This document shows, in pieces, positions 1 through 12,759 of a stretch of 16,022 bases of DNA. Below the pieces are notes generated by a model, which was not told where the DNA came from, made no database searches, and saw only the letters and a list, made by a program, of their open reading frames with translations. A program made the position numbers and the translations under genes. This stretch comes from a virus (lineage: Duplodnaviria > Heunggongvirae > Uroviricota > Caudoviricetes), in IMG/VR virus record IMGVR_UViG_2526164666_000036, positions 1 to 16,022 of that record. One strand, written 5' to 3'. Positions within the stretch are counted from its first letter, which is position 1; the number at the start of each line of letters is the position of its first letter.

Positions 1-675
1 CTACATTTTCGGGTTCTTCTGTAATGCAGCTTTAGTGCGCGCAATCAGGTCCTGATATAACGGTTTACCCACACCCCAGCGTGCCGAATCCTGGCTGGCC
101 CCCGTGTCCGCACTGAATGTCCCCTCCGCGCCCTGGGTGAATGCCGAACCACCACGACAGCATGGTACCAGCAGGATCCCCGCGTTATTCGGGATATACG
201 GGAGCAGTTTTTTGGCAATATGTAACCCCTGGCCGACACAGCCGTACTGCCCTTTGCTCAGGTCTGCCTTCGGATGATTCAGCGTACTCATATCCTGCAC
301 ATCATGCAGGCAGTGGTCAGCCGGGATGATGTCGTTATACGTACAACTCTCTCCACCCGGAGTTACCGTGCTGCGGCGCGCCAGCTGTTTAATGCGCGGA
401 TCCGGAGCATCGTAAGAATCCGGTAACGGAAGCCCTTCACCGTAGGCCATGCCGTTGGACTGTCCGGCAAGCACAACCACGTAGAACCAGTCCGGCTCAG
501 ATGAAGGGCCGACCTGTGGATCTCCTTCAATAGCCACCGCCTGCATCAGTGTGTACGGCGTAATGGCAACCGGTCCGCCATATGGCTGCCAGCCCTCTTT
601 CAGTTTGTGTGTCAGCTTTTCCGCAAGGTCTGACGGCGACGCCGCCCTGACAACATCATAATGTTTAATCGACAT
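1..675 (-). CDS. DUF1737 + SASA/SGNH-type sialate O-acetylesterase-like protein (prophage NanS-p-like), 224 aa, possibly a truncated form
   Basis: Minus-strand ORF, ATG at 675-673 preceded by GGGAGA. N-terminus MSIKHYDVVRAASPSDLAEKL resembles DUF1737; VVVLAGQSNGMAYGEG carries the GQSN serine block of SASA/SGNH esterases. TAG stop lies at bases 3-1, so the product is far shorter than typical ~600 aa NanS-p proteins. Confidence 0.65.
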   Translation of the reverse strand: MSIKHYDVVRAASPSDLAEKLTHKLKEGWQPYGGPVAITPYTLMQAVAIEGDPQVGPSSEPDWFYVVVLAGQSNGMAYGEGLPLPDSYDAPDPRIKQLARRSTVTPGGESCTYNDIIPADHCLHDVQDMSTLNHPKADLSKGQYGCVGQGLHIAKKLLPYIPNNAGILLVPCCRGGSAFTQGAEGTFSADTGASQDSARWGVGKPLYQDLIARTKAALQKNPKM

Positions 676-1058
676 CGAATTTCTCCCGTGTACAGGAACA
701 GAGTTAAAAAGCCGGAACCGGAATCAAATTACAGGATGGCCATCTGCCAGTGGCTGGTCGTAAAAAAAGGCCACGCCATGCGCAGCCGGAAATAAAGGGA
801 TAACGATGATAGTTTGAGAAAAACAGAAACGACACTTTTGTGGCAAAGCATGGTGCCGGGTGCCTCCCGGTGAGTTCAGCCCGGTGCCACTAAACCCTCG
901 TCATTCTCGTTTTGATAATCAGAGATTATACCGTCACCAGTCGCCCCTCCGCTCAGGGGGATTCACCATGCAGTTTTTTTCTAACAAATTCTCATCCGGG
1001 CAGACAACATTCAACTGACTTAATTGTGAGGTATGTAACATTCCTGTTGAACGGATAC

Positions 1059-1088
1059 AAAAAAAGCCAGCCACTGGGGGAGGCTGGC
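1059..1088 (-). terminator. Rho-independent terminator for the leftward late transcript
   Basis: Stem GCCAGCC / GGCTGGC (1066-1072 / 1082-1088) with 9-nt loop; on the minus strand it is followed by a 7-nt U run (A run 1059-1065 on +). Confidence 0.6.
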
Positions 1089-1271
1089 GAAACTCGTAGA
1101 GCAAAAGTGTTGTTACACTAACTTCGTCACAGGGTTATCCTGCAATACTCAAAATACACAATATTTACAAAACTAATAGTATACAAGGCGATCTTTAAGA
1201 TTTTGTTATAAATTATTGCCTTTCTCCTCTTTCCATGAGCTTTCTGGATAGCCACAGAATTCCGGGTACAG

Positions 1272-1296
1272 AAAAACCCGCTCAGCGGCGGGTTTT
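1272..1296 (-). terminator. Rho-independent terminator (bidirectional hairpin, stronger on minus strand), candidate tR'
   Basis: Stem CCCGC / GCGGG (1277-1281 / 1288-1292) flanked by A5 on one side and T4 on the other; lies about 50 nt downstream of the predicted late promoter. Confidence 0.5.
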
Positions 1297-1345
1297 GCTA
1301 CTTTGGCATCACGTACAAAATCGGCAAAATATCAGATTTGCATGA

Positions 1346-1374
1346 AATATATGCCTTTTAATCTACTTTTGCAA
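1346..1374 (-). promoter_or_regulatory. PR'-like sigma70 late promoter just downstream of the Q-like gene
   Basis: On the minus strand: TTGCAA (1374-1369), 17-nt spacer, TATATT (1351-1346); starts 5 nt after the Q-like stop codon. Confidence 0.5.
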
Positions 1375-1378
1375 TACT

Positions 1379-2047
1379 TTACTGTGAAAATGCCGCCTTT
1401 TGTTTTAAACGTGTTATCGTCACGAACAATAAAGCCTCATTATCCAGCCGGTGAAAAATGTGTTTCATTGCAACCCAGTGGCCAGTAAATGTTTTGGACC
1501 AGTTTTTGGTTGTCACTCCCGCCAGTAATGCCAGCTCCTGGTATTCATAACCTTCCCCACCAAAAAGTTCTGCTTTTACTGCCTGCGCCGCCAGCCAGAT
1601 TAATTTTTTCAGGCGTTCCTGCGTTTTCCCTGCAATTTTTCTGGTACCAGATTGAGTATTAAATTCATTCCACGCCCACTGTGTTATCGCGATCTGATAT
1701 TCCCAACAAATGCTCTCGCTGTAACACCACAACAACCAGGCTTTATGATGTTCTTCAAGAGACAGAACAGCCCGCCGCCACGATGATGTCGAAAACTCAA
1801 CCGGACTGACCAGAGGAATTGATGTCCCCTTCGCCAGCGATTGCTTTCCCGGGATTGGTGGATTATCCCGCGTTATCATTTTTCCGGTCACCTCATCTCT
1901 GTACCGGATTTTTTTTCTCCTGTAACGCCCTGTATCGAACATGGCATTCTCCTGCCAGGCTTCAAGCTGACCTTTTGTTGCCTCACTCAAATCAGCGGTG
2001 GCGATAATGAGCTGCTCACGCACAAACTGTAAATACTGGTTATTCAT
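1379..2047 (-). CDS. Late-gene antitermination protein Q-like, 222 aa
   Basis: Sits immediately downstream of rusA and upstream of a consensus-like promoter plus terminators, the canonical Q position. ATG at 2047 overlaps the rusA stop (ATGA) and is preceded by GGAG; the ORF track's 2053 start is a GTG. Family assignment rests on position and size, not a recognised motif. Confidence 0.6.
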   Translation of the reverse strand: MNNQYLQFVREQLIIATADLSEATKGQLEAWQENAMFDTGRYRRKKIRYRDEVTGKMITRDNPPIPGKQSLAKGTSIPLVSPVEFSTSSWRRAVLSLEEHHKAWLLWCYSESICWEYQIAITQWAWNEFNTQSGTRKIAGKTQERLKKLIWLAAQAVKAELFGGEGYEYQELALLAGVTTKNWSKTFTGHWVAMKHIFHRLDNEALLFVTITRLKQKAAFSQ

Positions 2048-2403
2048 GCGCACTCCAGTTCTGTGATTTTTATCCCCAGCCGCCCACCAGAAACGAGCTG
2101 ACCGCGCACAATATTGATTTCATCAAACTGCTCGTCGTCTATGAGAAGTCCGGCATGCGTCAGCGCATCCAGTGGTGCTTTCAGGATATTGTCCAGGTCA
2201 CGACGACGTTTATCTGGTGGCTCTGCAATAATCTTTATCGCCAGCCGTCCGGACAGGTTTAATTTCAACCGCTGCTGGCGAACAATTAGTGCCACATCAC
2301 GGCGATAACGCTCACCGACTTTTGATACAAAATATGTGTTGCCACGACGTCGCCAGTAAGTATTCACCGTCGGCGGATAAGGCAAAACAAACTCTATACG
2401 CAT
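2044..2403 (-). CDS. rusA: Holliday junction resolvase RusA (crossover junction endodeoxyribonuclease)
   Basis: 119 aa; RusA-like layout including RRRDLDN and GGRL motifs; AAGAGG SD 6 nt upstream of ATG. Confidence 0.85.
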   Translation of the reverse strand: MRIEFVLPYPPTVNTYWRRRGNTYFVSKVGERYRRDVALIVRQQRLKLNLSGRLAIKIIAEPPDKRRRDLDNILKAPLDALTHAGLLIDDEQFDEINIVRGQLVSGGRLGIKITELECA

Positions 2404-2415
2404 CAGTAACCTCTT

Positions 2416-3465
2416 TTACCCGAGCACGCCGGTTGCAAAGGCGTGATCAAGAAAACGAAAAATTAAATCAACCTGGGAACCATGCTTTTCTTCGAACGCC
2501 AGCGGATCCGCATGAAGTTCGTTGTGATGTTCCCGGCACAACGGTAGCGTGAAAATATCGTGGGCCTTTGTTCCCATCCCTCCCTGACCGTGACCAATCA
2601 GGTGATGGGGATCGTCGGCTGGCTGACCACAACACGCACACGGCTGTGTCTTCACCCAGCGCGTATATTTCTCATTTACCCAACGGCGACGTTTAGGTCG
2701 CCTCATGAAAGATTCCGGAGACTCCGGATCAACGGTAACGCTGACCACTGTTTTTTCCTGTAGCGTGGTTTGTTGCTGGTGGACGTGAAGTGGCAGCGCA
2801 ATATTTTTTGTGCGCTGCTTCAGTATGCTGATGGCTGTCTGTTCTCCCGGTACGATGTCACTCTCACGGTATACGGAGCGGATTTTTTCCACCGGTAATC
2901 CCAGCGAACGACGCGCTACTGCCTCAGGTAGTGCATCCACCACCTGATTGCAGGCCGCCCACCAGGATAATTCGGCCAGCGATAACTCCCTCTCCTGCGT
3001 ACCGCTTATTGCGTGACGGATGACGTCAATCATCCAGGCAACCAGATTCTGCTGAGCAAGTTGATCGAGTGATTCTGATGTCTGGTCGCGCAGCTGGTTG
3101 TCACAGTGCCAGCACAACACCATCGCGCCGGCACCGTAACGGTGAATGACTGTTTCGCTGTGATGATAATCGCCGTGTAGCCACTGGCAGGATTTCACGT
3201 GACGTAATAACCAGTCAGACAGTGCACCAGCGCCACCCGCAGCACGGATCACCCGCTCATCGCTGAAAAATGGCAGTAGTGATTTATCTTCCGCCAGCGG
3301 CTGGTGAACGGCAGGTACAACCCCGGACGGCAGAGCTCGCATGCTTTTTGGTTCCGGCTCCACCAGTATTCTGCCGTTATGGAATGCTGACATTGATTCA
3401 CGGCCTGGCTTAACGATAACCAGACCGAGTTCCGGTACCAGAACAGGTCGAAGTAATACCCGCAC
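2416..3465 (-). CDS. DUF968 family prophage protein (YdfU-like) with C-terminal HNH-like Cys/His motif, 349 aa
   Basis: GTG start at 3465 preceded by GGAGG; C-terminus CACCG...DPHHLIGHG...LCREHHNELH resembles a His-Me finger. Length and position (between rusA and hokD) match Qin ydfU as I recall it. Confidence 0.7.
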   Translation of the reverse strand: MRVLLRPVLVPELGLVIVKPGRESMSAFHNGRILVEPEPKSMRALPSGVVPAVHQPLAEDKSLLPFFSDERVIRAAGGAGALSDWLLRHVKSCQWLHGDYHHSETVIHRYGAGAMVLCWHCDNQLRDQTSESLDQLAQQNLVAWMIDVIRHAISGTQERELSLAELSWWAACNQVVDALPEAVARRSLGLPVEKIRSVYRESDIVPGEQTAISILKQRTKNIALPLHVHQQQTTLQEKTVVSVTVDPESPESFMRRPKRRRWVNEKYTRWVKTQPCACCGQPADDPHHLIGHGQGGMGTKAHDIFTLPLCREHHNELHADPLAFEEKHGSQVDLIFRFLDHAFATGVLG

Positions 3466-3466
3466 A

Positions 3467-3745
3467 TTACCTCCAGATCCGTTGCTGGAATGTGCGGGAC
3501 GGACGCGGTGGCCGTTCGGAGTAAGGGAGCCTGACGGAGATTATCCAGTGACGGTAGTCGAGGCTAAGGGCTTTTTTAACCTCGCATCCGCGCCTGCGGT
3601 AACACTGAATGAGCCATTCGGCCTGTTCTTCAGTGCATGGGGGATGCTGGTACCAGTCAGATTTGAATGCGTGAAAACACCGTCCGCGCCTGCTGGCAAA
3701 GACGGCAGAATCATCAGAATTGTATAATTTGGTATCGTGCGCCAT
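3467..3745 (-). CDS. Hypothetical Cys/His-rich small protein, 92 aa (position of rem in Qin)
   Basis: First in-frame ATG at 3745 (MAHDTKLY...); the track's TTG start at 3826 lies inside a terminator U-tract. Stop TAA sits inside the SD-start spacer of the DUF968 gene. SD is weak. Confidence 0.45.
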   Translation of the reverse strand: MAHDTKLYNSDDSAVFASRRGRCFHAFKSDWYQHPPCTEEQAEWLIQCYRRRGCEVKKALSLDYRHWIISVRLPYSERPPRPSRTFQQRIWR

Positions 3746-3813
3746 CGGTTGTCTCTGCTGGCGCAGCAGGTGCCAGTTGTTCAGGCTGGCGTGCGAATTG
3801 TAAACCAGAATGC

Positions 3814-3844
3814 CAGGAAAAAACAAAACCCGCCGAAGCGGGTT
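3814..3844 (-). terminator. Rho-independent terminator downstream of hokD
   Basis: On the minus strand: AACCCGC-UUCG-GCGGGUU hairpin (UUCG tetraloop) followed by UUGUUUUUU. Confidence 0.6.
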
Positions 3845-3912
3845 AAGTGCGGGTGCGTTGAGGATGCCTGATTCATCAGAGGTGGCGAGGGATTTCTCCC
3901 TCGCCGGGTCTC

Positions 3913-4068
3913 TTACTCCTCAGGTTCGTAAGCTGTGAAGACAGCGACCTCCGTCTGGCCGGTTCGGATTCGTACCTCGCAGAGGTCTTTCCTCGTTACC
4001 AGTGCCGTCACTATGACGGTTAAACAGATGACGATCAGGGCGATTAACATCGCCTTTTGCTGCTTCAT
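3913..4068 (-). CDS. hokD: Hok-family type I toxin HokD (RelF), 51 aa
   Basis: Translation MKQQKAMLIALIVICLTVIVTALVTRKDLCEVRIRTGQTEVAVFTAYEPEE matches HokD as I recall it; AGGAG 9 nt upstream of ATG at 4068. The track ORF carries a 19-codon in-frame upstream extension. Confidence 0.9.
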   Translation of the reverse strand: MKQQKAMLIALIVICLTVIVTALVTRKDLCEVRIRTGQTEVAVFTAYEPEE

Positions 4069-4244
4069 AGCCTGCTTCTCCTTGCCTTTCGGCACGTAAG
4101 AGGCTAACCTACATGTGCAAGTCATAGATATGGCCTCAGATTAATGTTAAGCGTCTTGCCGGACGCGTAATGTTAACTGGGGCTTTTCTCTATCTGCCTT
4201 TTGGTGTTCATGCCTGAGACAGATAGCCTCAAGCACCCGCAGCA

Positions 4245-4273
4245 ATTCTACTTAACTTCCCTTTTCTCGCAAA
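4245..4273 (-). promoter_or_regulatory. Candidate sigma70 promoter for the hokD transcript
   Basis: On the minus strand: TTTGCG (4273-4268), 17-nt spacer, TAGAAT (4250-4245); would give a ~170-nt leader before hokD. Confidence 0.3.
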
Positions 4274-4359
4274 TCGTTTTTATCCCCAGCGGCAAATCGA
4301 ATACACCACCAGCGCCACCGCCATCGCAATTCCTACCGTTGTGAATGCTTCAGGCCAGG

Positions 4360-5289
4360 TCATCGATTCACCTCCTGCTCAATATTTTTAAGGTCATTTT
4401 CCGCATACAGTATTGCTGTCCTGGCTGCTCGTAACCGGGCTTTGGCATTTTTCTCTTCACGTTCAAGTTTTGCCACAGCTTCACGAAGAGCATCCCGCTT
4501 TGCATAGAGTGATTTAATCTCAGACACTATGTTTTCACCGTTTCTCGCACGGTCGAGAACAAGCTCGAACGGATCTAAAGCCAATCCGCATCGGTTACAG
4601 GTAATCGTACGATTCACTTCTGAAATTGTTGTACGGATATGCTGACAGCATTTTTGCTCGCCGCTTTTTCTGTCGGTTATCACAACGTTGAGGAGTCCTT
4701 CCTCCTCTGATTTTGGCTGTACCAGGGTGATAACATTGTCGACTTCATTTTTCATCAGTTCCCCCCCCTGCGGCGGTTCCGGTAGCGGCATCCAGTGAGT
4801 TGCCTGCTCAATACCATTACCCGGCTTAATCGTTGCATCTCCGCGCCGGAATGTGCTTCCTGTATAGCGTGCGGAGCATATTAGCGGTTCAACCAGAGAG
4901 CTATCGAAATTCACCGAAATAAGCACGTTCTGGTTCTTTTCAGGCATCCGCTCACTACAGCTTATCCAGCCATTCTTAATGCCACGATCCTGACTCTGAA
5001 GCATGGTGGCGCGGTGACACCAGATAATCCAGCCAAGCGCCATATCCCATGCCATGTATTCGCTATCGCCATTTTTTGCCCTGCGACGATCTACAGATTC
5101 CCCGAAACGCTTCTCCATAAATAATTCATAGGCTGCCCGTTCATCCGATACTGCTTCCAGTGACGCCAGTGCGATACGAAACACATTGGCAAGCAGGCTG
5201 TCTGAAGATTGGATATCGTGCGCCGGGTCGCTCAGGAAACCAGTGATGAATGATTTAATCTCCGCGTTTTCTCTGGTAATAGTGGTCAT
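4360..5289 (-). CDS. Phage protein with DUF551-like motif, C-terminal zinc ribbon and coiled coil, 309 aa
   Basis: ATG at 5289 preceded by AAGGAAAG; ATHWMPLPEPP motif resembles DUF551; CCQH...CNRCG then a heptad-like charged C-terminus (AKLEREEKNAKARLRAA). The track start at 5379 is a longer upstream extension. Confidence 0.7.
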   Translation of the reverse strand: MTTITRENAEIKSFITGFLSDPAHDIQSSDSLLANVFRIALASLEAVSDERAAYELFMEKRFGESVDRRRAKNGDSEYMAWDMALGWIIWCHRATMLQSQDRGIKNGWISCSERMPEKNQNVLISVNFDSSLVEPLICSARYTGSTFRRGDATIKPGNGIEQATHWMPLPEPPQGGELMKNEVDNVITLVQPKSEEEGLLNVVITDRKSGEQKCCQHIRTTISEVNRTITCNRCGLALDPFELVLDRARNGENIVSEIKSLYAKRDALREAVAKLEREEKNAKARLRAARTAILYAENDLKNIEQEVNR

Positions 5290-5290
5290 A

Positions 5291-5509
5291 TCAGCTTTCC
5301 TTATATGGGTTGATTTTGTTGTGCAGTGTGTTGAACGACGCCCATACCACGTCGTTATACAATTCAATAACTGGCTCAATTATTTTCCCGATTGCCCAGA
5401 CAAAAATTAGAGGGGATATCGGTATCATTAACACGATAAACAGAATGAGAAACAGAAATTCTGTTGTTCTACTCTTTCGTGGATATTTTTTTCTGAATAA
5501 TGTGACCAT
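5291..5509 (-). CDS. Possible small membrane protein, 72 aa
   Basis: AT-rich ORF with one hydrophobic segment (FLFLILFIVLMIPISPLIFVWAIG); its TGA overlaps the ATG of the downstream gene (ATGA). No convincing SD, so it may be non-coding spacer. Confidence 0.3.
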   Translation of the reverse strand: MVTLFRKKYPRKSRTTEFLFLILFIVLMIPISPLIFVWAIGKIIEPVIELYNDVVWASFNTLHNKINPYKES

Positions 5510-5636
5510 TCATTACCGCCCTTTCGGGCGGCCTCCTGATGTTTTGAGGGTGCAGGAATCCCTCCGGTTAAGGATTTAATAAAAATCACTTCTGATTTAA
5601 ATTTTCAGTGTTTTGTTGCCAGGTGATTTATCGCCT

Positions 5637-5948
5637 TTACGCTTCAGCCTTATTTCTCAGCCATACACAAACAGGACCATCTTCAGTGTCATGAATGGAA
5701 CCAATGAACCAGCCATCGCCCTCTGGTCGTTCCGGTTCCCATGCTGAAATATCAGGGCCATCTGCGTCCAGGTTAAAATCATCTTCATCCATAGTGCAGA
5801 TAGTCCACTGAAGATTATTTGCCTCCATCCACGCGTTAAATTCCTCTGTGGAAATATATTCACGACCTGCGCAAAACTTTTCATACTCAGGATGTGTCCA
5901 GCAGCCATATTCATCACGTACTACTGGTATTTCTTTAATTTCATTCAT
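5637..5948 (-). CDS. Hypothetical acidic protein, 103 aa
   Basis: ATG at 5948 preceded by GGGAGAA; start overlaps the upstream gene's stop by 8 nt. Confidence 0.55.
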   Translation of the reverse strand: MNEIKEIPVVRDEYGCWTHPEYEKFCAGREYISTEEFNAWMEANNLQWTICTMDEDDFNLDADGPDISAWEPERPEGDGWFIGSIHDTEDGPVCVWLRNKAEA

Positions 5949-6195
5949 TTCTGTTCTCCCACGTTTTCAGACTTTCACCACAGAACGGACAAAATGAAAC
6001 CCGCACTGGTGATTTAGAAAATTCACCGGAACGCAACATCACCAAATCAGGGCCGCGAGTTAAACTCTCATTCCAGATTTTGTATATCAGCAGACCTTTT
6101 CGCGTCGTGTATTCAGCATCATGCTCAAGGGATTTTGCCAGTGCCGTACACGGTTCTATCTTGTTGCCATAAACCTGGCATTTTGATTCATTCAC
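5941..6195 (-). CDS. Hypothetical protein with Cys pairs (possible zinc ribbon), 84 aa
   Basis: GTG start at 6195 preceded by AGGAGA; overlaps neighbours at both ends; contains KCQ...C and CPFCG. Confidence 0.5.
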   Translation of the reverse strand: MNESKCQVYGNKIEPCTALAKSLEHDAEYTTRKGLLIYKIWNESLTRGPDLVMLRSGEFSKSPVRVSFCPFCGESLKTWENRNE

Positions 6196-6469
6196 TGGTT
6201 TCTTTCTCCTGTCTGAACATCATGATCATCAGGCCATCTTTTGTTGCTACCCTGACTGTTGTTCCTGGCTCTATGCTGCCAAGGTCAAATGCGTCATAAA
6301 ATTCATTCAACGCTTTCTGGTGTCTCTCCTGTTTGCGTCGCTTTTCCCACTGCTTCAGAAAAACAGAGGTCACCCACTTCCCCGCGCTGAACATGATGTA
6401 AAACCAACCAAGCAGGGCCAACCCCGTGTTGAGGGCTGTATCAATCGTTATTGTTGTGTCGATATTCAC
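6188..6469 (-). CDS. Hypothetical single-pass membrane protein, 93 aa
   Basis: GTG start at 6469 overlapping the upstream stop (GTGA), preceded by AGGAGA; hydrophobic segment GLALLGWFYIMFSAG. Confidence 0.5.
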   Translation of the reverse strand: MNIDTTITIDTALNTGLALLGWFYIMFSAGKWVTSVFLKQWEKRRKQERHQKALNEFYDAFDLGSIEPGTTVRVATKDGLMIMMFRQEKETSE

Positions 6470-6762
6470 TGTGTCTTCTCCTGGAAAATAACTGCATGCC
6501 CCAGCTTCTCCGCCAGTGCCAGTTCCGCCTTAGCGCCTGCTGACCGCTGCCAGCCTTTCAGCATGTAAATCGCATCCACACAACGAATCATTGCCATGCA
6601 AATATCCATGTAGTGTGGCTGTGTCAGCCCGTCCGGAAGTACTGCCGGGGTTAAGACGGTATGCCCTTCCCGTTTCAGTTCCTCTTCCGCCTTGTGAAAC
6701 GCCTCACGGTTGAAATTTTCATATCCCGTCATTGGACCGGCAATATAAACTCTCACCCTCAC
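6466..6762 (-). CDS. DUF4406-like protein (nucleoside deoxyribosyltransferase-like fold), ~98 aa
   Basis: VYIAGPMTG...LTPAV...LKGWQRSAGAKAELALA pattern; GTG at 6762 overlaps the upstream stop (GTGA). The track's longer start at 6831 would overlap the upstream gene by 72 nt. Confidence 0.55.
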   Translation of the reverse strand: MRVRVYIAGPMTGYENFNREAFHKAEEELKREGHTVLTPAVLPDGLTQPHYMDICMAMIRCVDAIYMLKGWQRSAGAKAELALAEKLGHAVIFQEKTQ

Positions 6763-7151
6763 TCCATCACCTCCTGAAAGTTTCCCCGATAGAACGCCAG
6801 CACACGCTGCATAACTTCGCTCTGGCGGCACTCACGACAAATTATGTTCTGCCGTCTGTTGTAACGACGTATTTCTCCGTCAGGTAACTTTCGAATCAGT
6901 GTCGGGTCAGCAGCCTTCTCCGGTGTCTTACGCCATACGCGATACGCCTGCTCTGATGGAAATACCCCGCAACCAGAGAGCCAGACATCACCACTGGCCG
7001 CAAGCGCACCAGATAAACGACGAATAGCGGTCTTACTGACACCCGTTTTATCTGCCAGTTGTCGAAAAGTTTCTCGTCCGCTCAGGCGCACGAATTCCAC
7101 AATGCGCGCCTTCACTTCTTCCCGCTCTTCTGGTGTAAATTCTTTTGCCAT
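6759..7151 (-). CDS. Hypothetical HTH-containing phage protein, ~130 aa
   Basis: ATG at 7151 preceded by GGAGG 5 nt upstream (the track start at 7166 is TTG); helix-turn-helix-like stretch TFRQLADKTGVSKTAIRRL. Confidence 0.55.
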   Translation of the reverse strand: MAKEFTPEEREEVKARIVEFVRLSGRETFRQLADKTGVSKTAIRRLSGALAASGDVWLSGCGVFPSEQAYRVWRKTPEKAADPTLIRKLPDGEIRRYNRRQNIICRECRQSEVMQRVLAFYRGNFQEVME

Positions 7152-7166
7152 AAGCGCCTCCGGCAA

Positions 7167-7937
7167 TCACTTTTCCGATACAACACGGCGGGAAGAATCA
7201 GTAATCTGTCGAACAATATCCCGGTGCTTGTTCAGCTCCCGCAGCGCGGCGCAGACTCGCTCCCACTTCTGAACATCACTTTTCGCCCTGCGCAGCGCCA
7301 GGTTTGCCCTGCGAAGGGACGGAAAAATCAGCTCATCTGCTTGCGTTTCGGTAAACGATGGCAACGGCTGCACAATGTCCGCCACAGTTTCTGTTTTAAT
7401 TTCTTCCTGTGTTGCGGCTTCCCGGACTGGTAACGCAGCACCTGCTGGCTGAGGAAAGGCCTTACCATCACTTTCCGTTACCAGCGCGGCTTTCGGCTCT
7501 GCTGGTAAATTATCGCCCGGCATGCAGTAACGAAATTTACCGTTCTGATTAACGCGTGCCAGCCGCCCCGTTGCGGTTACCACCGCCAGCGTGGAAGCAA
7601 CCTTGCGAGTACTGACACCGAACTTACCCGCCAGTTCCTCACACGTTTTAGCCCCATCCTGACCGATAAACTCAATCATCATGTCTGCGGTAACTTTTTG
7701 TTCGACCTCCCCGGTCAGCATATCCTGTGCTTCAGATTTTACTGGCCGCTCTTCGGTTACCCGGGATTCACCTTCGCCAGCCAGAAACCAGGTGTGACCC
7801 GTTTTATCAACAACGCCATTTTTTTTGAGTTCCCACAGTTCGTTGAGAACTTCTTCACGGCTGATATCAAGCCGCGCCGCCAGTTCAACAGAATTGGCTT
7901 TACCCATCGCTTTCAGTGCATGCAATACGGTTTCCAT
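7167..7937 (-). CDS. Hypothetical protein with two winged-helix-like repeats, 256 aa
   Basis: ATG at 7937 preceded by GGAGGA 7 nt upstream; two similar segments ([24 protein letters not shown] and [24 protein letters not shown]). Confidence 0.6.
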
Positions 7938-7966
7938 TAAAACTTCCTCCGGATAAAAATTACTTC

Positions 7967-8707
7967 TCAGTTCCTGTGCTGGCTGACGTTCGGACGCCAG
8001 CTCTCCCAGTTAAACGTCACCCAGCGACCACCGTTCATGGACATGCGGTCCATCACCCGCTCGCCGAGAAGTGTATTCATCGCTGCATGGTTAAGATTTG
8101 TCAGCATCCCCACACTGAGTAACGATGCCGTTCTGCGGTCAACAATCTGATTCAGCGTGACCTGCTCATTACGCGTATCCCGTTGCATGCCAATTTCATC
8201 CAGTACCAGCAGGTCAACGCCACACAATCCCTGCAAAAATTTTTCGCCCGAGTTTTTGTTGTCGTAGCTGCCATGTAACGCCAGCATCACATCCGCCACT
8301 GTTATCACAATCACACTGCGACCTTTCGCCAGAAGGTGGTTGCCAATAGCCGCCGCCAGGTGGTTTTTTCCTGTGCCAGGCCTGCCACTGAAAACAAAAT
8401 TCGTACAGCCGCCTTCCAGCTCTGCCGCAATGGATTTCGCCTGACTCAGGGCATGGCGCTGACCATCGTTCTGCACCCGGTAGTTACCGAACGTACACTT
8501 CCGGTGAAGCGGCTGGATACCGGAGCGGTTAATGATTTTTTCAACCCGCGTCTGATGATTCAGACGATTAACCTCCTCGCTTCGCTTACGCCCTTCAGCA
8601 AGCTGCCATTCCCGCCACTCCGCCACCGTACGGTACGGAGGGATTGCATCCTGCGGCACAAATCTGCTGACTCTTGCCAGAACACCACCTGACGTAATGT
8701 TTTTCAT
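7967..8707 (-). CDS. DnaC-like replicative helicase loader (YdaV-like / phage P analogue), 246 aa
   Basis: Walker [16 protein letters not shown] and Walker B LLVLDEIG; immediately downstream of the O-like initiator gene. Confidence 0.85.
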
Positions 8708-8713
8708 GGTGCG

Positions 8714-9682
8714 CTACCCCCTGAAACCCGGCGGAATTTCGGTATCCGGTTCAGAAATATGATTCACGCAACGCTGCGCGGGCGAACGCCCCAGGCGGAT
8801 AACCAGTTCATCCCATTTTTCCCGGAGTTTTGCCGGACTCATGATGTTTTTTACCCAGAACGAATCCCGTTGAACACGCCCAAACATTTCACAAATCTGT
8901 CGGTGACTACGTCCATCCAGCATACGCATCATGCGCACATCATTCGCCCAGGTCGTCCAGTTAGGCTCTCTGGGGCGTGATACCTCCCCATCATCACTGG
9001 CGGCCTGTTCATACAACGCAACAACCCGTCCCCAGATCCACTGTGCACACGTCAAATCCTCCCGGGTTCCCCACTGTCGCTTTGGTACATTCCAGGTATG
9101 CGCATCCGGGTGTTTCTCCAGAAATCGCTCGACCGGTGATGCTTGTTTTTCGTCCGGCAGTGAAACGTCCGGACAAGAAGATCTTTTATCTGACGGATCA
9201 GGTTTTAATACTGACGGATCGGGGTCAATCATCGCCCCCCTAATCGGCAGTTTTTTATCAACAGTTGATCCATCAAAATTTGACGGGTCAACCGTTGAGG
9301 GGTCAATATTTGACGGGTCAACTGTTAACGGGTCATTTTTTGCCGGGCTAATTTTTCTTTTCGGTTTATATGACTCACGCGCCGCCGCCGCAGCTGCTTC
9401 GAGTTTTTCCACATTAAGCCGATAGATATTGCTTACATTACGCCCACCGACCTTACGCTCTTCCTTCGTCAGCCAGCCCTCTTTCGCCAGTTCTGCAATA
9501 GCCGATTTCACTGTGGATTCACTTCTTGCACCGATCTGACGCCGGATAGTTTCAATGGCAGGCCATGACACGCCCTCGTCATTGCTGTAGTCTGCAAGAC
9601 GGGCCATAACCGCCACCCTGGATAAGATCATGCCGGTGAAGGCGCACCCTTCCCAGACAAGACCATGAAGCTTGCTGCTCAT
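8714..9682 (-). CDS. Replication initiator O-like protein (YdaU-like) with N-terminal HTH
   Basis: ATG at 9682 (alternative GTG at 9697); central linker DPLTVDPSNIDPSTVDPSNFDGSTVD is encoded by the DNA iterons, as with ori inside lambda O. Confidence 0.75.
   Translation of the reverse strand: MSSKLHGLVWEGCAFTGMILSRVAVMARLADYSNDEGVSWPAIETIRRQIGARSESTVKSAIAELAKEGWLTKEERKVGGRNVSNIYRLNVEKLEAAAAAARESYKPKRKISPAKNDPLTVDPSNIDPSTVDPSNFDGSTVDKKLPIRGAMIDPDPSVLKPDPSDKRSSCPDVSLPDEKQASPVERFLEKHPDAHTWNVPKRQWGTREDLTCAQWIWGRVVALYEQAASDDGEVSRPREPNWTTWANDVRMMRMLDGRSHRQICEMFGRVQRDSFWVKNIMSPAKLREKWDELVIRLGRSPAQRCVNHISEPDTEIPPGFRG
9190..9340. repeat. Iteron array: candidate prophage replication origin inside the O-like gene
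   Basis: Repeated GACGG(A/G)TC at 9192, 9213, 9281, 9311; palindromic cores TCAACAGTTGA (9257-9267) and TCAACCGTTGA (9287-9297); exact 13-bp repeat TTTGACGGGTCAA 30 bp apart; followed by an AT-rich stretch at 9334-9370. Confidence 0.6.
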
Positions 9683-9704
9683 AAAACCCCCGAACACCGT
9701 GCTT

Positions 9705-10130
9705 TTAGTGCATCACCACAGCATTCCCTGCCGGGCCGCCGCGATTCATCTGGTCATACAAAACAACCGCTGACGCAACAAAATCATCGACATCCTTCAC
9801 CAGCCGATCCCTCCGTTCGACGATCTCACGGTAATATTCAGAACTGTGGCTGCGCATACGGGCCACCAGCAAAGGCGGCATCGCCTTTTCGATCGCCGGT
9901 AACAGAGCCTGCATTTTTTCAACAGCATCAGGGGTGTCTTTCTCTACCCAGCGGAAAATTTTCTGGGTATTGCGAGCCAGGGCTTCCGGATGGCTGTCGT
10001 CATACAGTTCTGGGAACGTCATACCCAACTCAAAATAAGCCTGGGTTATTCCAGCTGCTGGAACTTTTTCGCCATCAGGACGCGCCCAGGCATTCATCGC
10101 CATGCGGATGTGTTCATGCTTGATTTTCAT
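9705..10130 (-). CDS. YdaT-like protein (CII-position regulator), 141 aa
   Basis: Begins MKIKHEHI; AGGAG SD; directly downstream of, and overlapping by 17 nt, the Cro-like gene, as in Rac ydaS-ydaT. Confidence 0.65.
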   Translation of the reverse strand: MKIKHEHIRMAMNAWARPDGEKVPAAGITQAYFELGMTFPELYDDSHPEALARNTQKIFRWVEKDTPDAVEKMQALLPAIEKAMPPLLVARMRSHSSEYYREIVERRDRLVKDVDDFVASAVVLYDQMNRGGPAGNAVVMH

Positions 10131-10395
10131 GAATCAAGCTCCTAGAAAGTGGTTGTGTTAACGTTTTGGTATCTTCCAGCTCGGGCCAAATATTCATCCA
10201 ATCAAAAGGCCTTAGTTGCTGACGTGTAACTTCACCATTACTGGCTCGCTCAATAAGGACACATAACGATGCCCCTAACACTTGACCTTTACTCAATGCC
10301 TTTCTTAGATAACCGATGCTGGTACCACACTCGCATGCAAACATACGCTGTTCATCTGACGAAAGAGAATTGAGAAATATTCTTAATTCTTCCAT
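10114..10395 (-). CDS. Cro-like HTH regulator (YdaS/DicC family), 93 aa
   Basis: HTH-like FACECGTSIGYLRKALS and IERASNGEV...LRP pattern; AAGGAG SD 5 nt upstream of ATG; divergent from the repressor gene. Confidence 0.7.
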   Translation of the reverse strand: MEELRIFLNSLSSDEQRMFACECGTSIGYLRKALSKGQVLGASLCVLIERASNGEVTRQQLRPFDWMNIWPELEDTKTLTQPLSRSLIHENQA

Positions 10396-10495
10396 AGCTA
10401 CTCCTTAGTAAACACAGCAAAGAATACCCACAGGTAAACAAAAGTCAATACCCACAGGTTGTTTACCTTGCGGTAATCGCATCTATTATTTACCT
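10396..10495. promoter_or_regulatory. Divergent immunity promoter/operator region
   Basis: Direct repeats AATACCCACAGGT at 10423-10435 and 10447-10459, plus TTTACCTATGGA at the repressor ATG. Minus strand carries TTGACT-16-TATTCT for the Cro-like gene. On the plus strand TATTAT (10484-10489) sits 6 nt before the repressor ATG with no SD, implying a leaderless mRNA. Confidence 0.55.
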
Positions 10496-10915
10496 ATGGA
10501 CAAATATGAATTTAGACGACAGCAACTCATCAAAATTCGTGATGAGAAATGCGATGGTAAAGCGGTTAACGTGGCCAGAAAGATCGGGCGCGAGCCTTCT
10601 TATGTATCAAGAATGTTGTACCCAGAGGGGAAAAAGGGAAAAAAACGGATCGCTGATGATATGGTGGAGATTATCGAAGAGTCCTTTGGGTTACCCCGGG
10701 GATGGATGGATGGTATCGTTTCATCATCAACGAACACAGCCTCCAGTTATGAAACAAGGGTTCTAACGCCACGACAACGTATTTTTTTAGATCTCTTAGA
10801 CGAACTGCCAGAAAGTGAAGCGGATAAATTATTAAAAACTCTTGAAGAGAAAAAACAGTATTACAATATGATCTACGAAGAAATCCGTAAAAAGAAAGCA
10901 CAAAACGCATCATAG
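10496..10915 (+). CDS. cI-type prophage repressor (DicA/RacR-like), 139 aa
   Basis: Divergent from the Cro-like gene; N-terminal HTH region; C-terminal LPESEADKLLKTLEEKK resembles the DicA C-terminus as I recall it. Confidence 0.75.
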   Translation: MDKYEFRRQQLIKIRDEKCDGKAVNVARKIGREPSYVSRMLYPEGKKGKKRIADDMVEIIEESFGLPRGWMDGIVSSSTNTASSYETRVLTPRQRIFLDLLDELPESEADKLLKTLEEKKQYYNMIYEEIRKKKAQNAS

Positions 10916-10955
10916 CTCACCAAACAACTAGTCACCAGTTAAGACACCGCAAAAA

Positions 10956-10997
10956 TTTACCCATGGGTATTTACTTTTTAAATACCTATGGGTATCC
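10956..10997. promoter_or_regulatory. Two palindromic operator-like sites at the early operon promoter
   Basis: TTTACCCATGGGTATTT (10956-10972, perfect palindrome TACCCATGGGTA) and AATACCTATGGGTATCC (10981-10997), same half-site as the divergent region; overlap candidate -35/-10 hexamers. Confidence 0.5.
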
Positions 10998-11180
10998 TTC
11001 TTTTCATACCAACCCACCCCGCCCCACAGAATGCAGGGCAATACTTCGAGTTACCAGGCAGTGGTCAGGGGTTAAGTAGCCAGCCCGAGGCGTAAGAACA
11101 TGACGGCAGGGTTCAACTTTAATAACTATGCAGCAGGTTTTTGTTCCGCTACCCCGGCGTTAAGGGGAAATGAGGTCAGC

Positions 11181-11333
11181 ATGGATACTATCGATCTTGG
11201 CAACAACGAATCTCTGGTATGTGGCGTGTTTCCCAATCAGGACGGCACGTTTACCGCGATGACGTATACCAGAAGCAAAACGTTTAAAACGGAAGCTGGC
11301 GCGCGTCGCTGGTTAGCAAGAAACTCTGACTGA
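11181..11333 (+). CDS. Small protein YdfA/YdaF-like, 50 aa
   Basis: ATG at 11181 with GAGG 5 nt upstream; MDTIDLGNNESLV... resembles Qin YdfA as I recall it; first gene after the repressor. Confidence 0.55.
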   Translation: MDTIDLGNNESLVCGVFPNQDGTFTAMTYTRSKTFKTEAGARRWLARNSD

Positions 11334-11344
11334 TGAGGTTGACG

Positions 11345-11983
11345 ATGGAATTTAAAGATTTACCTCCTTCAATCCAGGAGATTGCAGCACACACACTTCG
11401 TCATCGTCTGAACGAACTTGAATTGGAATCGGTAACGAAAAAAGACACTGATAATATGGCTCGTAATGTGCGCGATGCGTTTACCGGATTGTATTTCTGT
11501 GCGTCTATAAATAAACACGACTCAGAGAGTGTGGCAAATAAAATTGCAGAAACGACAGCGCAAAACATCAATACGAAACCAACGGAAGAAGAAATTGATC
11601 AGTTTGCTCATGATGCTGGTTTAAAAAACAAGAAAGAAAAATCGCCATATGCGGGGAACATGTTTGTTTATGACAATCTCATCAGAATTCGTGGCGAAAT
11701 TCCGGCGGAATACCTGGCAAGAGTCCATCAGGCATTGCTTAAAAATTTGGAAACAGAATTATTTGATGGCAACACTAACGGTTTCTTCATGGTATCAGGC
11801 CTTGAGAAAGACTGGGATGCAGAAAAACGCTGGAATGTTGCTACATGGTTATTCAGTAACAGAGCCGCTGCACTGGAAGCTTCGGCATGTATTTGCGGCC
11901 TGTTCTTAACAGACCACAAATATAATCTGGATGTGTACAGTTATATTTACGCTGAACACGGTCCACTCTGGATTGACTGGTAA
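11345..11983 (+). CDS. Hypothetical protein of unknown function, 212 aa
   Basis: ATG at 11345 with GAGG 7 nt upstream (alternative ATG at 11333 overlapping the upstream stop); no motif I recognise. Confidence 0.6.
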   Translation: MEFKDLPPSIQEIAAHTLRHRLNELELESVTKKDTDNMARNVRDAFTGLYFCASINKHDSESVANKIAETTAQNINTKPTEEEIDQFAHDAGLKNKKEKSPYAGNMFVYDNLIRIRGEIPAEYLARVHQALLKNLETELFDGNTNGFFMVSGLEKDWDAEKRWNVATWLFSNRAAALEASACICGLFLTDHKYNLDVYSYIYAEHGPLWIDW

Positions 11984-12531: not shown

Positions 12532-12589
12532 TTCTGGTGACATTTGGCGGTATCAGTTTTACTCCGTGACTGCTCTGCCGCCCTTTTTT
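12532..12589 (+). ncRNA. dicF: DicF small regulatory RNA
   Basis: TTCTGGTGACATTTGGCGGTATCAGTTTTACTCCGTGACTGCTCTGCCGCCCTTTTTT matches DicF as I recall it, apart from one or two changes near the 5' end; ends in its own GC-hairpin plus U-tract terminator; lies just upstream of dicB. Confidence 0.85.
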
Positions 12590-12759
12590 AAAAGTGAATT
12601 TTGTGATGCGGTGAATGCGGCTCAGCGCACGCGGAACAGTTAAAACCAAAAACAGTGTTATGGGTGGATTCTCTGTATCCGGCGTTAATTGTTAACTGGT
12701 TAACGTCACCTGGAGGCACCAGGCACCGCATCACAAAATTCATTGTTGAGGACGCGATA

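Follow-up and report, generated by a model that had tools for sequence, protein, structure and literature searches.

The region between positions 676 and 1378 of the window (the whole 16,022-nt stretch of viral DNA analyzed here) is bounded by two genes on the minus strand, a Q antiterminator gene of the phage 82 family and a carbohydrate esterase gene, and sequence and homology analysis places all late leader elements between them (promoter, terminators, and sRNA segments) on that same strand. The Q gene (1379-2053(-), stop codon 1381-1379) encodes 224 aa and matches PF06323 with 302.8 bits (E 1.9e-90), and by tblastn its product is 77.1% identical to Q of phage 82 (X92588.1), 73.9% to Q of phage 434, and 66.1% to AntQ of Gifsy-1. 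A structure search with this protein found no relative among solved structures, Q-lambda and Q21 included; the sole match, a Listeria Ply protein, is spurious. The esterase gene as given by the ORF list, which is the first late gene, starts with ATG at 675-673(-) behind a Shine-Dalgarno sequence GGGAG at 687-683; it carries the Pfam domains DUF1737 and SASA (NanS-p-like), and in identical genomes its product bears the annotation of a carbohydrate esterase of the SASA family with 616 aa. A previous reading made from the letters of the DNA (the sequence-only reading) had described the intervening stretch as a non-coding late control region 3' of Q, which stands with the assignment of Q to PF06323 (302.8 bits) and its 77% identity to phage 82 Q. 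That interpretation was largely right overall but missed the largest element, an sRNA gene of the STnc100/PasD type. The gap of ~700 bp between Q and esterase is occupied by an 82-type late promoter with terminators, a copy of StxS, and a member of the STnc100/PasD family, with the homologies, motifs, hairpins, and positions all observed directly in 676-1378. We consider it likely that 676-1378(-) is the late-operon leader of a lambdoid prophage that belongs to the phage 82 type and resides in Shiga-toxigenic E. coli, with three known RNA modules arranged in series. Strains such as E. coli O103 RM8385, 2013C-4225, and O157:H7 F6294 carry the identical locus.

The region had been said to hold no ORF on the transcribed strand, and no credible one is present, but mechanical ORFs of 40 to 56 aa do exist; Pfam and PHROG searches gave no family match for any transcribed-strand ORF in 676-1378. 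It is very improbable that the region encodes small proteins such as a 42-aa GTG ORF at 1255-1127(-) or antisense ORFs like 912-1121(+). Besides the existence of mechanical ORFs in 676-1378, such a reading could draw on PHROG matches of the antisense ORFs 912-1121(+) (phrog_28474, E 7e-25) and 860-1018(+) (phrog_24488, E 9e-6) and on phage records that annotate hypothetical proteins at homologous places, but the matched families are automatic ORF calls on near-identical DNA with no assigned function, and we judge these matches, which concern antisense ORFs alone, to be annotation artefacts. None of the small ORFs matches Pfam, and PGAP calls nothing in the region but a frameshifted fragment. 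The antisense ORF would have to start from TTG with no Shine-Dalgarno sequence and to cross the tR' hairpin described below, indels of 4 nt and 1 nt set the homologues apart within the STnc100 body, and the 42-aa ORF aligns in Stx phages over its last 28 codons only, with a start that is not conserved.

Four nucleotides past the Q stop codon begins a sigma-70-type late promoter pR' of the 82 type (1346-1374(-)), composed of a -35 element TTGCAA (1374-1369), a 17-nt spacer, and a -10 element TATATT (1351-1346). Its presence and place had been recognized before, but the grade of "near-consensus" is too high, as the consensus scan counts 9 of 12 consensus positions ("good"). The same scan reports 4 promoter-like sites where 1.5 +/- 1.4 are expected, and pR' alone is not above chance; we take it as real because it is conserved downstream of Q82-type genes, with the same promoter found behind those of phage 434 and of prophage PP2 of EPEC E2348/69. 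The spacer carries GATTAAAAG, shared with phage 434, and is likely the place of the putative Q-binding element (QBE), a position that we infer; for 82 pR', the segment from -31 to +30 has been reported to contain the QBE and a pause element (PMC4914094). Transcription is predicted to start at A1339, and the initial transcribed region (1315-1339(-)) contains a predicted sigma-70-dependent pause element that can be read from the sequence as TG at +6 and +7 (1334-1333), TATTTT at +9 to +14 (1331-1326), GCC at +15 to +17 (1325-1323), and an AT-rich run followed by U at +25 (1315). For 82 pR', the literature describes a -10-like element of the extended type with GCC at +15-17, then AT-rich sequence, and a pause at +25 where the RNA ends in U (PMC5001585); from 1374 to 1315, the window agrees with this account position for position. 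The phage 82 record X92588 ends 24 nt past Q, and it is by published description only that the window pR' is matched to 82 pR'. Together with a Q of 77% identity and a promoter directly past it, the extended -10-like element, GCC at +15-17, AT-rich run, and U at +25 make up the likeness to phage 82; of the features of a Q82-type late control module, the window has a Q82-family gene directly upstream of a sigma-70 promoter with a -10-like pause element, and pausing at +25 is predicted, as is read-through of the terminators with Q.

Three hairpins with terminator features follow (t1, tR', and t3), all of them more stable than shuffled sequences. The consensus terminator scan found t3 (787-769 with U7 to 762, minus strand), which is absent from the sequence-only reading, and by its loop and tail rules missed t1, where the stem runs into the U-tract, and tR', which has a 9-nt loop; t1 and tR' were assessed by folding against shuffled sequences instead. 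Hairpin t1 (AAAACCCGC/GCGGGUUUU at 1296-1273, with its U-tract to 1272, also recovered as inverted repeat I2) spans 1272-1296(-) or +44 to +68, with stem 1296-1288/1281-1273, loop CGCUGA, and U-tract 1276-1272. Its folding energy is -14.9 kcal/mol (z -3.59; 1 of 200 shuffles folds as well), in line with the earlier claim of a terminator hairpin within ~50 nt of the promoter. Homologous hairpins follow genes of the Q933W type, the YdfT type, and the Q82 type, and in the phage 434 record the homologue is annotated as a terminator. Hairpin t1 marks the mosaic junction between the Q-specific promoter and a shared downstream module. A short, promoter-proximal RNA terminated here, as had been proposed, is plausible; t1 would end a leader RNA of ~68 nt, with the phage 434 hairpin annotated as a terminator and the Gifsy-1 equivalent being the sRNA IsrK. 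With 5 GC pairs and a U5 tract, t1 is a respectable terminator that could stop nearly all pR' transcripts, in which case the StxS-like part downstream of it would be silent in lysogens. Read-through of a t1-type hairpin is documented only in the Q933W-type context.

IsrK of Salmonella Gifsy-1 resembles the predicted leader in that it is a short RNA starting ~33 nt past an AntQ of the Q82 family (66% identical to the window Q), and it has a leaky terminator that gives short and read-through isoforms. The resemblance of the window to the isrJ/isrK models comprises its first ~15 nt (AAAUCUGAUAU) and the terminator, and the scores of RF01394 (IsrK) and RF01393 (IsrJ) on 1271-1342 are below gathering (19.4 bits vs 50 and 20.3 vs 37, respectively); we keep these matches as a positional lead and not as membership. 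The Gifsy-1 locus further matches the C4/c4-a1b1 antisense system and has orf45-anrP downstream; the window lacks both. Other sub-threshold Rfam matches (Qrr with 26 bits, Leu/Trp/Phe leaders, P9, asX2, CRISPR-DR28, and isrF) were dismissed as driven by terminator hairpins. Phage lambda has one terminator at +194; in the window, one terminator follows another, and an sRNA gene of its own lies beyond them. The proposed analogy to lambda 6S, a constitutive short late-promoter transcript that ends ahead of the late genes and is lengthened in the presence of Q (PMC7547250), holds as a positional and functional one; the Q family is different, and we found no sequence similarity that would indicate a relationship.

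Beyond t1, the segment 1059-1270(-) is homologous to the intergenic region between Q and stx2A of Stx phages. Read from 1270 to 1059, it shares 83.6% identity over 216 nt with phage P13374 (E 6e-53), and at least 80% of the query is covered in 290 of the 291 matching phage records. This region of Stx phages encodes the sRNA StxS in forms of 258 nt (StxS-L) and 74 nt (StxS-S) (Sy, Lan & Tree 2020, PMC7547250), and we confirmed for P13374 and Sakai Sp5 that it lies between Q and stx. The window segment corresponds to the 3' ~215 nt of StxS-L, with the first ~45 nt and the promoter replaced and a predicted precursor of ~280 nt. It ends in the hairpin tR' (1059-1088(-); stem GCCAGCC/GGCUGGC at 1088-1082/1072-1066, 9-nt loop, U7 at 1065-1059), which folds with -14.7 kcal/mol (z -4.17), a stability reached by 0 of 200 shuffles, and whose stem is identical in 8 of 8 aligned loci, one of them without a single loop base. 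The second strong terminator that had been placed ~200 nt past t1 is therefore present (1088-1059), and we identify it as the Stx-phage tR' because the segment from t1 to tR' is homologous to the StxS region; in Stx phages, Term-seq puts the StxS 3' end at the tR' terminator (PMC7547250). The sequence-only reading took t1 for tR', but by homology it is the second hairpin that corresponds to the published tR'. Its guess that another small RNA lies between the two terminators is supported by homology, the segment being the StxS region of Stx phages (PMC7547250).

Within this segment, we predict an StxS-S-like sRNA of ~85-89 nt (1059-1146(-)) that would begin at an RNase E site GU|AUU (G1148 U1147 | A1146), with cleavage predicted at 1147/1146. 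The sequence GTATTGCAGG with the GUAUU RNase E motif is invariant in 8 aligned loci. As a cross-check in Sp5, counting 258 nt back from tR' gives a start 22 nt past the Q stop codon and behind a TATCAT -10 element, and from this deduced start GU|AUU falls at +173/+174, exactly the published place (PMC7547250). The StxS-S-like RNA folds with -26.7 kcal/mol (z -2.7); covariation in its small hairpin is not claimed, as the base changes between alleles lie in shifted registers. StxS homology places the rpoS-pairing seed at 1134-1121(-) (CCCUGUGACGAAGU), where an A-to-G change relative to StxS preserves pairing as G-U. Scored on the known 50-nt activating region, the predicted duplex with the rpoS leader (-130 to -90) has -28.0 kcal/mol compared to -27.5 for StxS of Sp5, and 3 of 1000 shuffles reach the window value. 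When StxS was paired by RNAduplex with all 597 nt of the rpoS leader, the energies did not stand out from shuffles (88 and 177 of 300 reached them).

An internal promoter close to 1146 (e.g., TTGTAT-N17-TATTGT at ~1196-1168) could instead generate the StxS-S-like RNA independently of t1 and of RNase E processing, and the AT-rich upstream sequence does have weak -35- and -10-like hexamers. We regard this as unlikely, since no site in the stretch passes the consensus scan and, for StxS-S itself, detection of the 5' end by RLM-RACE without TAP and accumulation of StxS-L in an rne-ts strain speak for processing (PMC7547250).

With the same place, an identical tR' stem, a conserved GU|AUU, and a seed of equal duplex energy, the window segment resembles StxS of Stx1 and Stx2a phages closely enough that we call it an StxS allele, with predicted expression and Hfq binding. 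It is distinct from StxS in its sequence (UGUGACGAAGUUAGUGUAACAACAC), an allele common to O26/O145 prophages and an Stx2g phage, and in that no stx gene lies downstream. It also follows a Q82-type gene and promoter, whereas StxS has been reported to correlate with the 144-aa Q933W-type Q; neither that Q nor its pR' lies beside the StxS segment of the window, where the gene is the 224-aa Q82-type. The StxS module is further found behind Q genes of the 250-aa YdfT type. We treat the association of StxS with Q933W as a reported correlation and not as part of the definition of StxS.

How far transcripts from pR' would reach into this allele may depend on t1. If t1 is an efficient, functional tR', the StxS-like segment and its terminator would be a mosaic relic, transcribed solely within the late mRNA that Q antiterminates and giving no sRNA in lysogens. 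We find this doubtful but grant it some probability: t1 equals tR' in stability and has a GC-rich stem with a U-tract, its homologue in phage 434 and EPEC PP2 is the only terminator between an 82-type pR' and the next genes and is annotated as such, and the Q933W-type promoter is missing from the window along with the first ~45 nt of StxS-L. Against it stands the behavior of the equivalent hairpins. In Sakai Sp5, the t1 homologue lies at ~+23 to +47, inside the 258-nt StxS precursor, and is therefore read through there; the Stx-phage hairpin has an even longer U-tract, yet 258-nt StxS-L and abundant StxS-S are detected, and the Gifsy-1 equivalent IsrK has a leaky terminator. Across 8 loci of different Q types, moreover, the RNase E site, the seed, and the terminator have been kept, as one would scarcely expect of a silent relic.

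Directly past tR', Stx phages carry a cassette of ~1.9-2.2 kb composed of a methyltransferase fragment, three tRNA genes, and stxAB. In the window, this cassette is absent, and homology of both flanks to Stx phages places the junction at 1041-1058(-): positions 1275-1060 match DNA directly downstream of Q in Stx phages, and from ~1047 downward the window matches DNA directly downstream of stx2B in phages of the 933W/Sp5 type. Three tRNA genes are found at the homologous place in Sp5, P13374, and phi296, and none in the whole window by ARAGORN and the Rfam tRNA model. Set beside Stx phages, the window passes cleanly from tR' to the STnc100 gene and lacks the tRNA-stx cassette. The stx/tRNA slot had been called empty, and the cassette is indeed vacant at nucleotide level, but the slot is not free of elements and holds the STnc100/PasD-family sRNA gene.

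That gene lies in the last ~380 nt before the esterase, for which the description as empty is wrong. Covariance-model searches for tRNA and sRNA families, which had been proposed as a check, returned no tRNA but a full-length match to Rfam STnc100 (RF02076) at 812-1000(-), with 133.7 bits against a gathering score of 47, covering the model from 1 to 206 of 206 (E 8.1e-30). From this match and alignment to the ends of PasD1 and PasD2, we predict an STnc100/PasD-family sRNA of ~210 nt at 762-971(-). By alignment and folding, its 5' end is G971 (GCAUGGUGAAUCC...), a closing stem (971-964/855-848) encloses inner hairpins, and the 3' part consists of a CU-rich single-stranded linker (847-788), the terminator t3 (787-769; -12.8 kcal/mol), and U7 (768-762). 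The cmscan alignment shows the conserved STnc100 pairs of the closing stem and internal hairpins in the window. In a consensus fold of 5 homologues by RNAalifold, the closing stem and the inner hairpin are retained and a single pair is compensatory, which is thin covariation. Upstream lies a promoter-like sequence (975-1007(-)) with -35 TTGTCT at 1007-1002, an 18-nt spacer with TG at 986-985, and -10 TAGAAA at 983-978. It aligns with TTGACT-N18-TAAAAA upstream of the mapped PasD1 and PasD2 5' ends and with TTGCCT...TTAAAAAA of Sp5; it is weak by consensus, below the threshold of the consensus scan, and a candidate promoter from homology only. The window matches PasD in its 5' end, terminator, and position between Q and esterase (alignment to NC_011601 741157-741328 and 1060260-1060432), with PasD1 and PasD2 ends that had been defined by RNA-seq and Northern blotting (PMC8550237 Table S6).

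STnc100 is known as EcOnc27 or sRNA103 in EHEC and has the relatives PasD1 and PasD2 (EcOnc13) in EPEC; in a preprint, PasD is connected to STnc100, and PasD2 is located between Q and esterase. Members of the family are expressed and Hfq-bound in EHEC, EPEC, and Salmonella (EcOnc27, PasD1/PasD2), and EDL933 has 11 transcribed STnc100 copies, one of them seen by Northern blotting. Beyond the full-length covariance-model match, the window copy has three features in common with the family, namely GCAUGGUGAAUCC at its 5' end, the closing stem, and a PasD-like rho-independent terminator. It also has the place directly upstream of a NanS-p-type esterase where STnc100 lies in Stx2 phages; there, the family member follows directly past stx2B (Sp5 and P13374) and scores 207.7 bits compared to 133.7 bits for the window. 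The window sRNA is chimeric, with a 5' body like that of phage phi296 and Stx phages and a linker and terminator like those of PasD. The PasD seed UGUGAG, which is complementary to the CUCACA motif of RIL-seq targets, is absent from the window, where CCCUUUAUUUCC stands at the aligned place; since the seed is not conserved, PasD targets are not transferable to the window sRNA, which is a family relative and not a functional PasD. For the convergent anti-sRNAs AsxR/AgvB, present opposite STnc100 in Sp5, a search of the window as lenient as E <= 1 gave no hit.

The notion of an empty "moron" slot at 676-1059, with chance GC-rich repeats and no function, agrees with the absence of the tRNA-stx cassette but is refuted by the STnc100 match and the homologue alignment and keeps next to no credibility. 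Of the "GC-rich direct repeats" at 851-890, two short imperfect pairs can be found (11 nt of 82% and 10 nt of 90% identity), but they are not the sole content of the slot: they coincide with conserved paired regions and are stems of the STnc100/PasD-family sRNA. The full-length match (E 8e-30), the conserved promoter-like sequence with its terminator, and the expression of family members in EHEC and EPEC all stand against a functionless stretch.

Taken together, these elements suggest how the leader may work, with transcription, processing, Hfq binding, and targets proposed after those of homologues, from which the RNA ends are transferred; homology likewise suggests that RNAs are expressed from 676-1378. 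Transcription would initiate at ~A1339 of the 82-type pR', and RNA polymerase would pause at ~+25 on the -10-like element, where Q could load. In the absence of Q, transcripts would stop at t1 to give the ~68-nt leader, and a read-through fraction would stop at tR' (1088-1059) as a ~280-nt RNA, from which an RNase E cut at GU|AUU (1147/1146) may free an Hfq-binding sRNA of ~85 nt whose seed would pair with the rpoS leader as in StxS. The separate STnc100/PasD-family gene (~971-762) would use its own promoter-like sequence and terminator, with the CU-rich linker as the probable seed region. With Q, the modified polymerase would read past t1, tR', and t3 and go on to transcribe the esterase and lysis genes.

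The modules of 676-1378 are each of an already known kind, and the modest novelty lies in a non-Stx prophage having an StxS allele downstream of a Q of the 82 type; no finding on this region overturns current understanding. An annotation of the 700 bp would comprise a pR' of the 82 type, its two terminators in tandem, an StxS allele, and a gene for an sRNA of the STnc100/PasD family. The locus further represents an unoccupied stx insertion site at nucleotide resolution, useful for tracing the movement of Stx cassettes between phage backbones. Lambdoid prophages are many in STEC, and late-promoter leaders and "moron-slot" sRNAs are multi-copy, with 11 STnc100 copies in EDL933; of 5426 complete E. 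coli genomes, 710 carry the StxS-like block, and the median is 2 copies. If an StxS-like allele outside Stx phages is expressed, RpoS activators would be redundant and the phenotypes of stxS deletions harder to read. We tentatively propose, as one possibility and well short of an even bet, that StxS is not confined to Stx phages and that t1-StxS-tR' forms a mosaic module in its own right, recombining behind no fewer than three unrelated types of Q/pR' (Q933W, YdfT-type, and Q82). In non-Stx prophages of the 82 type, the constitutive late promoter would then supply a leader with two terminators, and the conserved promoter-proximal t1 would set the fraction of transcripts becoming an RpoS-activating sRNA. 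If this is true, t1, which is undiscussed in the StxS paper, would serve as a regulatory valve much like the leaky terminator of IsrK, and prophage late promoters would boost RpoS more widely, and with more redundancy, than the stxS1/stxS2 deletions had implied.

The interval between the Q antiterminator gene and the esterase gene (window 676-1378, minus strand) lies in a part of the window (1-3465) in which every gene is on the minus strand, with the Q-like ORF at 1379-2053(-) and the start of the esterase ORF at 675(-). Promoter scanning and hairpin folding bear out the general anatomy that the sequence-only reading had proposed for it, that is, a promoter, a hairpin and a second terminator following Q. 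The sequence of Q itself (302.8 bits against PF06323; 77% identity to Q of phage 82, 74% to Q of phage 434 and 66% to AntQ of Gifsy-1) places it in the Q82 family, one of three unrelated Q families, and no relative was found among solved structures, Q-lambda and Q21 included. Pfam numbers for these families are used inconsistently in bioRxiv 10.1101/651190, which lists the Q21 and Q82 families alike under PF06530; our profile scan assigns the window Q to PF06323.

The late promoter pR' (TTGCAA-17 nt-TATATT, 1374-1346(-)) starts 4 nt past the Q stop codon. The position of the near-consensus promoter that had been proposed just past this stop therefore holds, while its 9/12 consensus match is by itself not above chance (4 sites in a consensus scan versus 1.5 +/- 1.4 expected). 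In phage 434 and in prophage PP2 of EPEC E2348/69, the Q82-type gene is followed by the same promoter and the same next bases, TCATGCAAAT. With +1 set at A1339, so that the -10 hexamer spans -12 to -7, the predicted transcript begins with AAAUCUGAUAUUUUGCCGAUUUUGUA, and its initial transcribed region contains TG at +6/+7, a -10-like TATTTT at +9 to +14, GCC at +15 to +17, an AT-rich run and a U at +25. The pR' of phage 82 has been described as comprising an extended -10-like element, GCC at +15-17 and an AT-rich stretch that leads to a +25 pause, where the RNA ends in U (PMC5001585); compared with this published description, each pause feature is found at the same position in the window. A relative of the stretch comprising the Q end and pR' is present in 1991 of 5426 complete E. 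coli genomes (~37%).

Hairpin 1 (t1; 1296-1272(-), -14.9 kcal/mol, z -3.6) follows soon after the promoter, as the sequence-only reading had noted. Other genomes become identical to the window precisely from this hairpin (window 1294) onward, as far as the esterase (96.8% at 82% query coverage); upstream of it they carry a YdfT-type Q of 250 aa and another promoter. The same hairpin is also found after the 144-aa Q of the Stx phages P13374 and Sakai Sp5 and, in phage 434 and EPEC PP2, after a Q gene of the 82 type, with a terminator annotation in the phage 434 record. Since hairpin 1 is shared behind different Q types, it is the first element of a common downstream module; the promoter and pause region that precede it go with the type of Q. 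Three unrelated Q types precede this hairpin, which marks the mosaic junction.

The Rfam models isrK and isrJ give sub-threshold matches exactly on +1 to +68 (19.4 and 20.3 bits). In Gifsy-1, IsrK starts 33 nt past a Q82-type gene, and it is known as a short RNA and a read-through form that arises because its terminator is leaky (PMC4825925). For the window leader, IsrK is a precedent for the mode of working, not for family membership. Two further Rfam models, c4-a1b1 (48.1 bits) and C4 antisense RNA (69 bits), match the isrK locus of Gifsy-1 (L008, 3198-3396); these matches point to IsrK/STnc1160 as a P1-like C4 antisense system sited in a late-promoter leader.

Between the terminators, window 1275-1060 aligns with DNA of ~290 Stx phages of the Stx1a, Stx2a and other types, at ~83.6% identity along 216 nt (E 6e-53). 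The aligned DNA of P13374 and Sakai Sp5 sits after Q and before the tRNA-stx2AB cassette, in the interval that is the published StxS locus. There, pR' to tR' spans 258 nt, and RNase E cleavage at GU|AUU (+173) yields a stable, Hfq-binding StxS sRNA of ~74 nt that activates rpoS via the seed it shares with DsrA, RprA and ArcZ and represses stx1B (PMC7547250). In Sp5, a +1 placed 258 nt before the 3' end of the second terminator falls 22 nt past the Q stop, behind a TATCAT -10, and with that +1 the GU|AUU falls at +173/+174, in exact agreement with the published site. It follows from these positions that hairpin 1 lies at about +23 to +47 inside the 258-nt precursor StxS-L, so that transcription in Stx phages passes through it. 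This terminator-like hairpin with a tract of 6-7 U is found inside StxS-L of Sp5 (L007, 868-893) and of P13374 (L005, about 2985-3010); the StxS paper makes no mention of a hairpin at +23 to +47 (PMC7547250).

The guess that a second small RNA lies between the terminators was a good one, the segment being StxS by sequence match. The window has kept the GUAUU motif (1148-1144) as well as the stem of the terminator and the seed region, and the one seed difference (GUAACGAA to GUGACGAA) still allows a G-U pair. For a duplex with rpoS -130 to -90, the predicted energy is -28.0 kcal/mol for the window allele versus -27.5 kcal/mol for Sp5 StxS; 3 and 5 of 1000 shuffles, respectively, do as well. The window allele recurs in prophages of O26:H11 11368 and O145:H28 RM12761 and in an Stx2g phage. 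Of 5426 genomes, 710 carry StxS-like segments, the median being two places per genome. StxS has been reported to correlate with the 144-aa Q, a correlation that fails for this module. In RM12761 (L013, 1470-1730), a StxS-like module has no Q gene directly upstream and neighbor genes on the opposite strand, and in OkiPb01695 (L014, 1440-1676), an IS66 element cuts such a module short immediately before an Stx2g operon, so that transcription of these two modules cannot come from a normal pR'.

The segment ends in the strong second terminator tR' that had been proposed (1088-1059(-), U7, -14.7 kcal/mol, z -4.2). A consensus terminator scan recovered only a third terminator, t3 (787-762(-), U7, -12.8 kcal/mol), that was absent from the earlier list, and missed hairpin 1 and tR' because its rules bar a 9-nt loop and a stem running into the U-tract. 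Between t3 and the esterase ribosome-binding site, a small CCGG..CCGG inverted repeat followed by UUUUU (706-721(-)) is too short to be convincing as a terminator.

Down to 1059 the window corresponds to DNA following Q in Stx phages, and from ~1047 downward to DNA following stx2B. The methyltransferase fragment, three tRNA genes and stxAB of Sp5 and P13374 are missing at a junction of only ~17 nt, and ARAGORN finds no tRNA, in line with the view that this slot lacks tRNAs and stx. The last ~380 nt before the esterase had been called empty as well, and this was wrong: a covariance-model search, the check suggested at the time, matches the whole Rfam STnc100 model (RF02076) at 812-1000(-) with 133.7 bits (gathering score 47, E 8e-30). 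In Sp5 and P13374, STnc100 (207.7 bits) starts 75 nt past stx2B and is followed by the convergent anti-sRNA AsxR, an arrangement with which the EcOnc27/sRNA103 and AsxR literature agrees; neither AsxR nor AgvB has a match in the window.

A 2026 preprint relates STnc100 to the EPEC sRNAs PasD1 and PasD2, the latter located between Q and a sialate esterase. We aligned the PasD loci to the window from mapped PasD coordinates (PMC8550237 Table S6). The PasD 5' end aligns with G971 (GCAUGGUGAAUCC), the PasD terminator with 787-769 plus U7, and the PasD promoter TTGACT-N18-TAAAAA with TTGTCT (1007-1002)-N18-TAGAAA (983-978), the window -10 being preceded by TG. Alignment to the PasD ends thus predicts a STnc100/PasD-family RNA of ~210 nt at 971-762(-), whose 5' body resembles phi296/Stx-phage STnc100 while its linker and terminator resemble PasD; the PasD seed UGUGAG is replaced. 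The GC-rich direct repeats noted earlier at 851-890 exist as two short imperfect pairs; in this RNA they make up the arms of its inner hairpins and its closing stem GCAUGGUG/CACCAUGC. Covariation is weak (one compensatory pair in five sequences). The family is expressed, with 11 transcribed copies in EDL933, one of them Northern-confirmed.

Transcribed-strand ORFs of 40-56 aa have no Pfam or PHROG match, and of a 42-aa GTG ORF only the last 28 codons are conserved and the start is not. Two antisense ORFs match families of unknown function, 912-1121(+) phrog_28474 (E 7e-25) and 860-1018(+) phrog_24488 (E 9e-6), and lie on the strand opposite the STnc100 gene with its promoter and opposite tR'. 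With TTG or GTG starts, one of them crossing the tR' hairpin, and frame-breaking indels in homologues, we regard these ORFs as annotation artefacts; both families probably originate from automatic ORF calling in non-coding DNA that is conserved.

The exact sequence of the region is already present in many sequenced genomes. Prophages of O103 RM8385, 2013C-4225, 2013C-4538 and other Shiga-toxigenic E. coli are 100% identical to window 3-16022, and a gap-spanning 851-nt query (window 600-1450) is 100% identical in O157:H7 F6294 and O145:NM FWSEC0002 and 99.9% in O111:H11 8D. In identical records, the NCBI pipeline annotates around the gap only Q, a frameshifted opposite-strand fragment and a 616-aa SASA-family esterase; some records have a DUF6645 protein instead of the esterase at window 1-675. 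The apparent esterase stop after 224 aa is a TAG from window bases 1-3. Bases 2-5 are unlike the 616-aa esterase gene of F6294, and otherwise 100% identical genomes align only from base 3; this stop, located at the very edge of the window, is probably not a real truncation. Elsewhere in the window, a hok/sok type I toxin-antitoxin locus lies at 3913-4238(-), where an Rfam sok match (115 bits, 4063-4238) overlaps a 70-aa ORF that is Hok-like in its C-terminal ~50 residues and annotated as hokD in identical genomes. A DicF sRNA match (77 bits, 12532-12583(+)), on the strand opposite to Q and the late genes, is consistent with an early region of the Qin/Rac kind in this prophage.

The late control region downstream of Q is real, yet each of its components is a known kind of element. 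Three points are modestly new: a non-Stx prophage carries a StxS allele downstream of an 82-type Q/pR', its STnc100/PasD variant is chimeric, and a promoter-proximal hairpin is conserved within the StxS precursor. From the identities, motifs and hairpins found here, we infer how transcription, processing and Q action may proceed in the lysogen and on induction. In the lysogen, pR' would fire constitutively and the majority of its transcripts would stop at t1 as a ~68-nt leader, with some passing on to tR' as a ~280-nt RNA. The share passing t1, set by its leakiness behind an 82-type pR', is the main uncertainty of the model, as t1 may instead be efficient in this promoter context and let few transcripts beyond it. 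Given a leaky t1, RNase E would free a StxS-like sRNA of ~85 nt able to activate rpoS. The STnc100-like RNA would be made from its own promoter. On induction, Q would load at the +25 pause, and the Q-loaded polymerase would ignore t1, tR' and t3 and transcribe the esterase and lysis genes.
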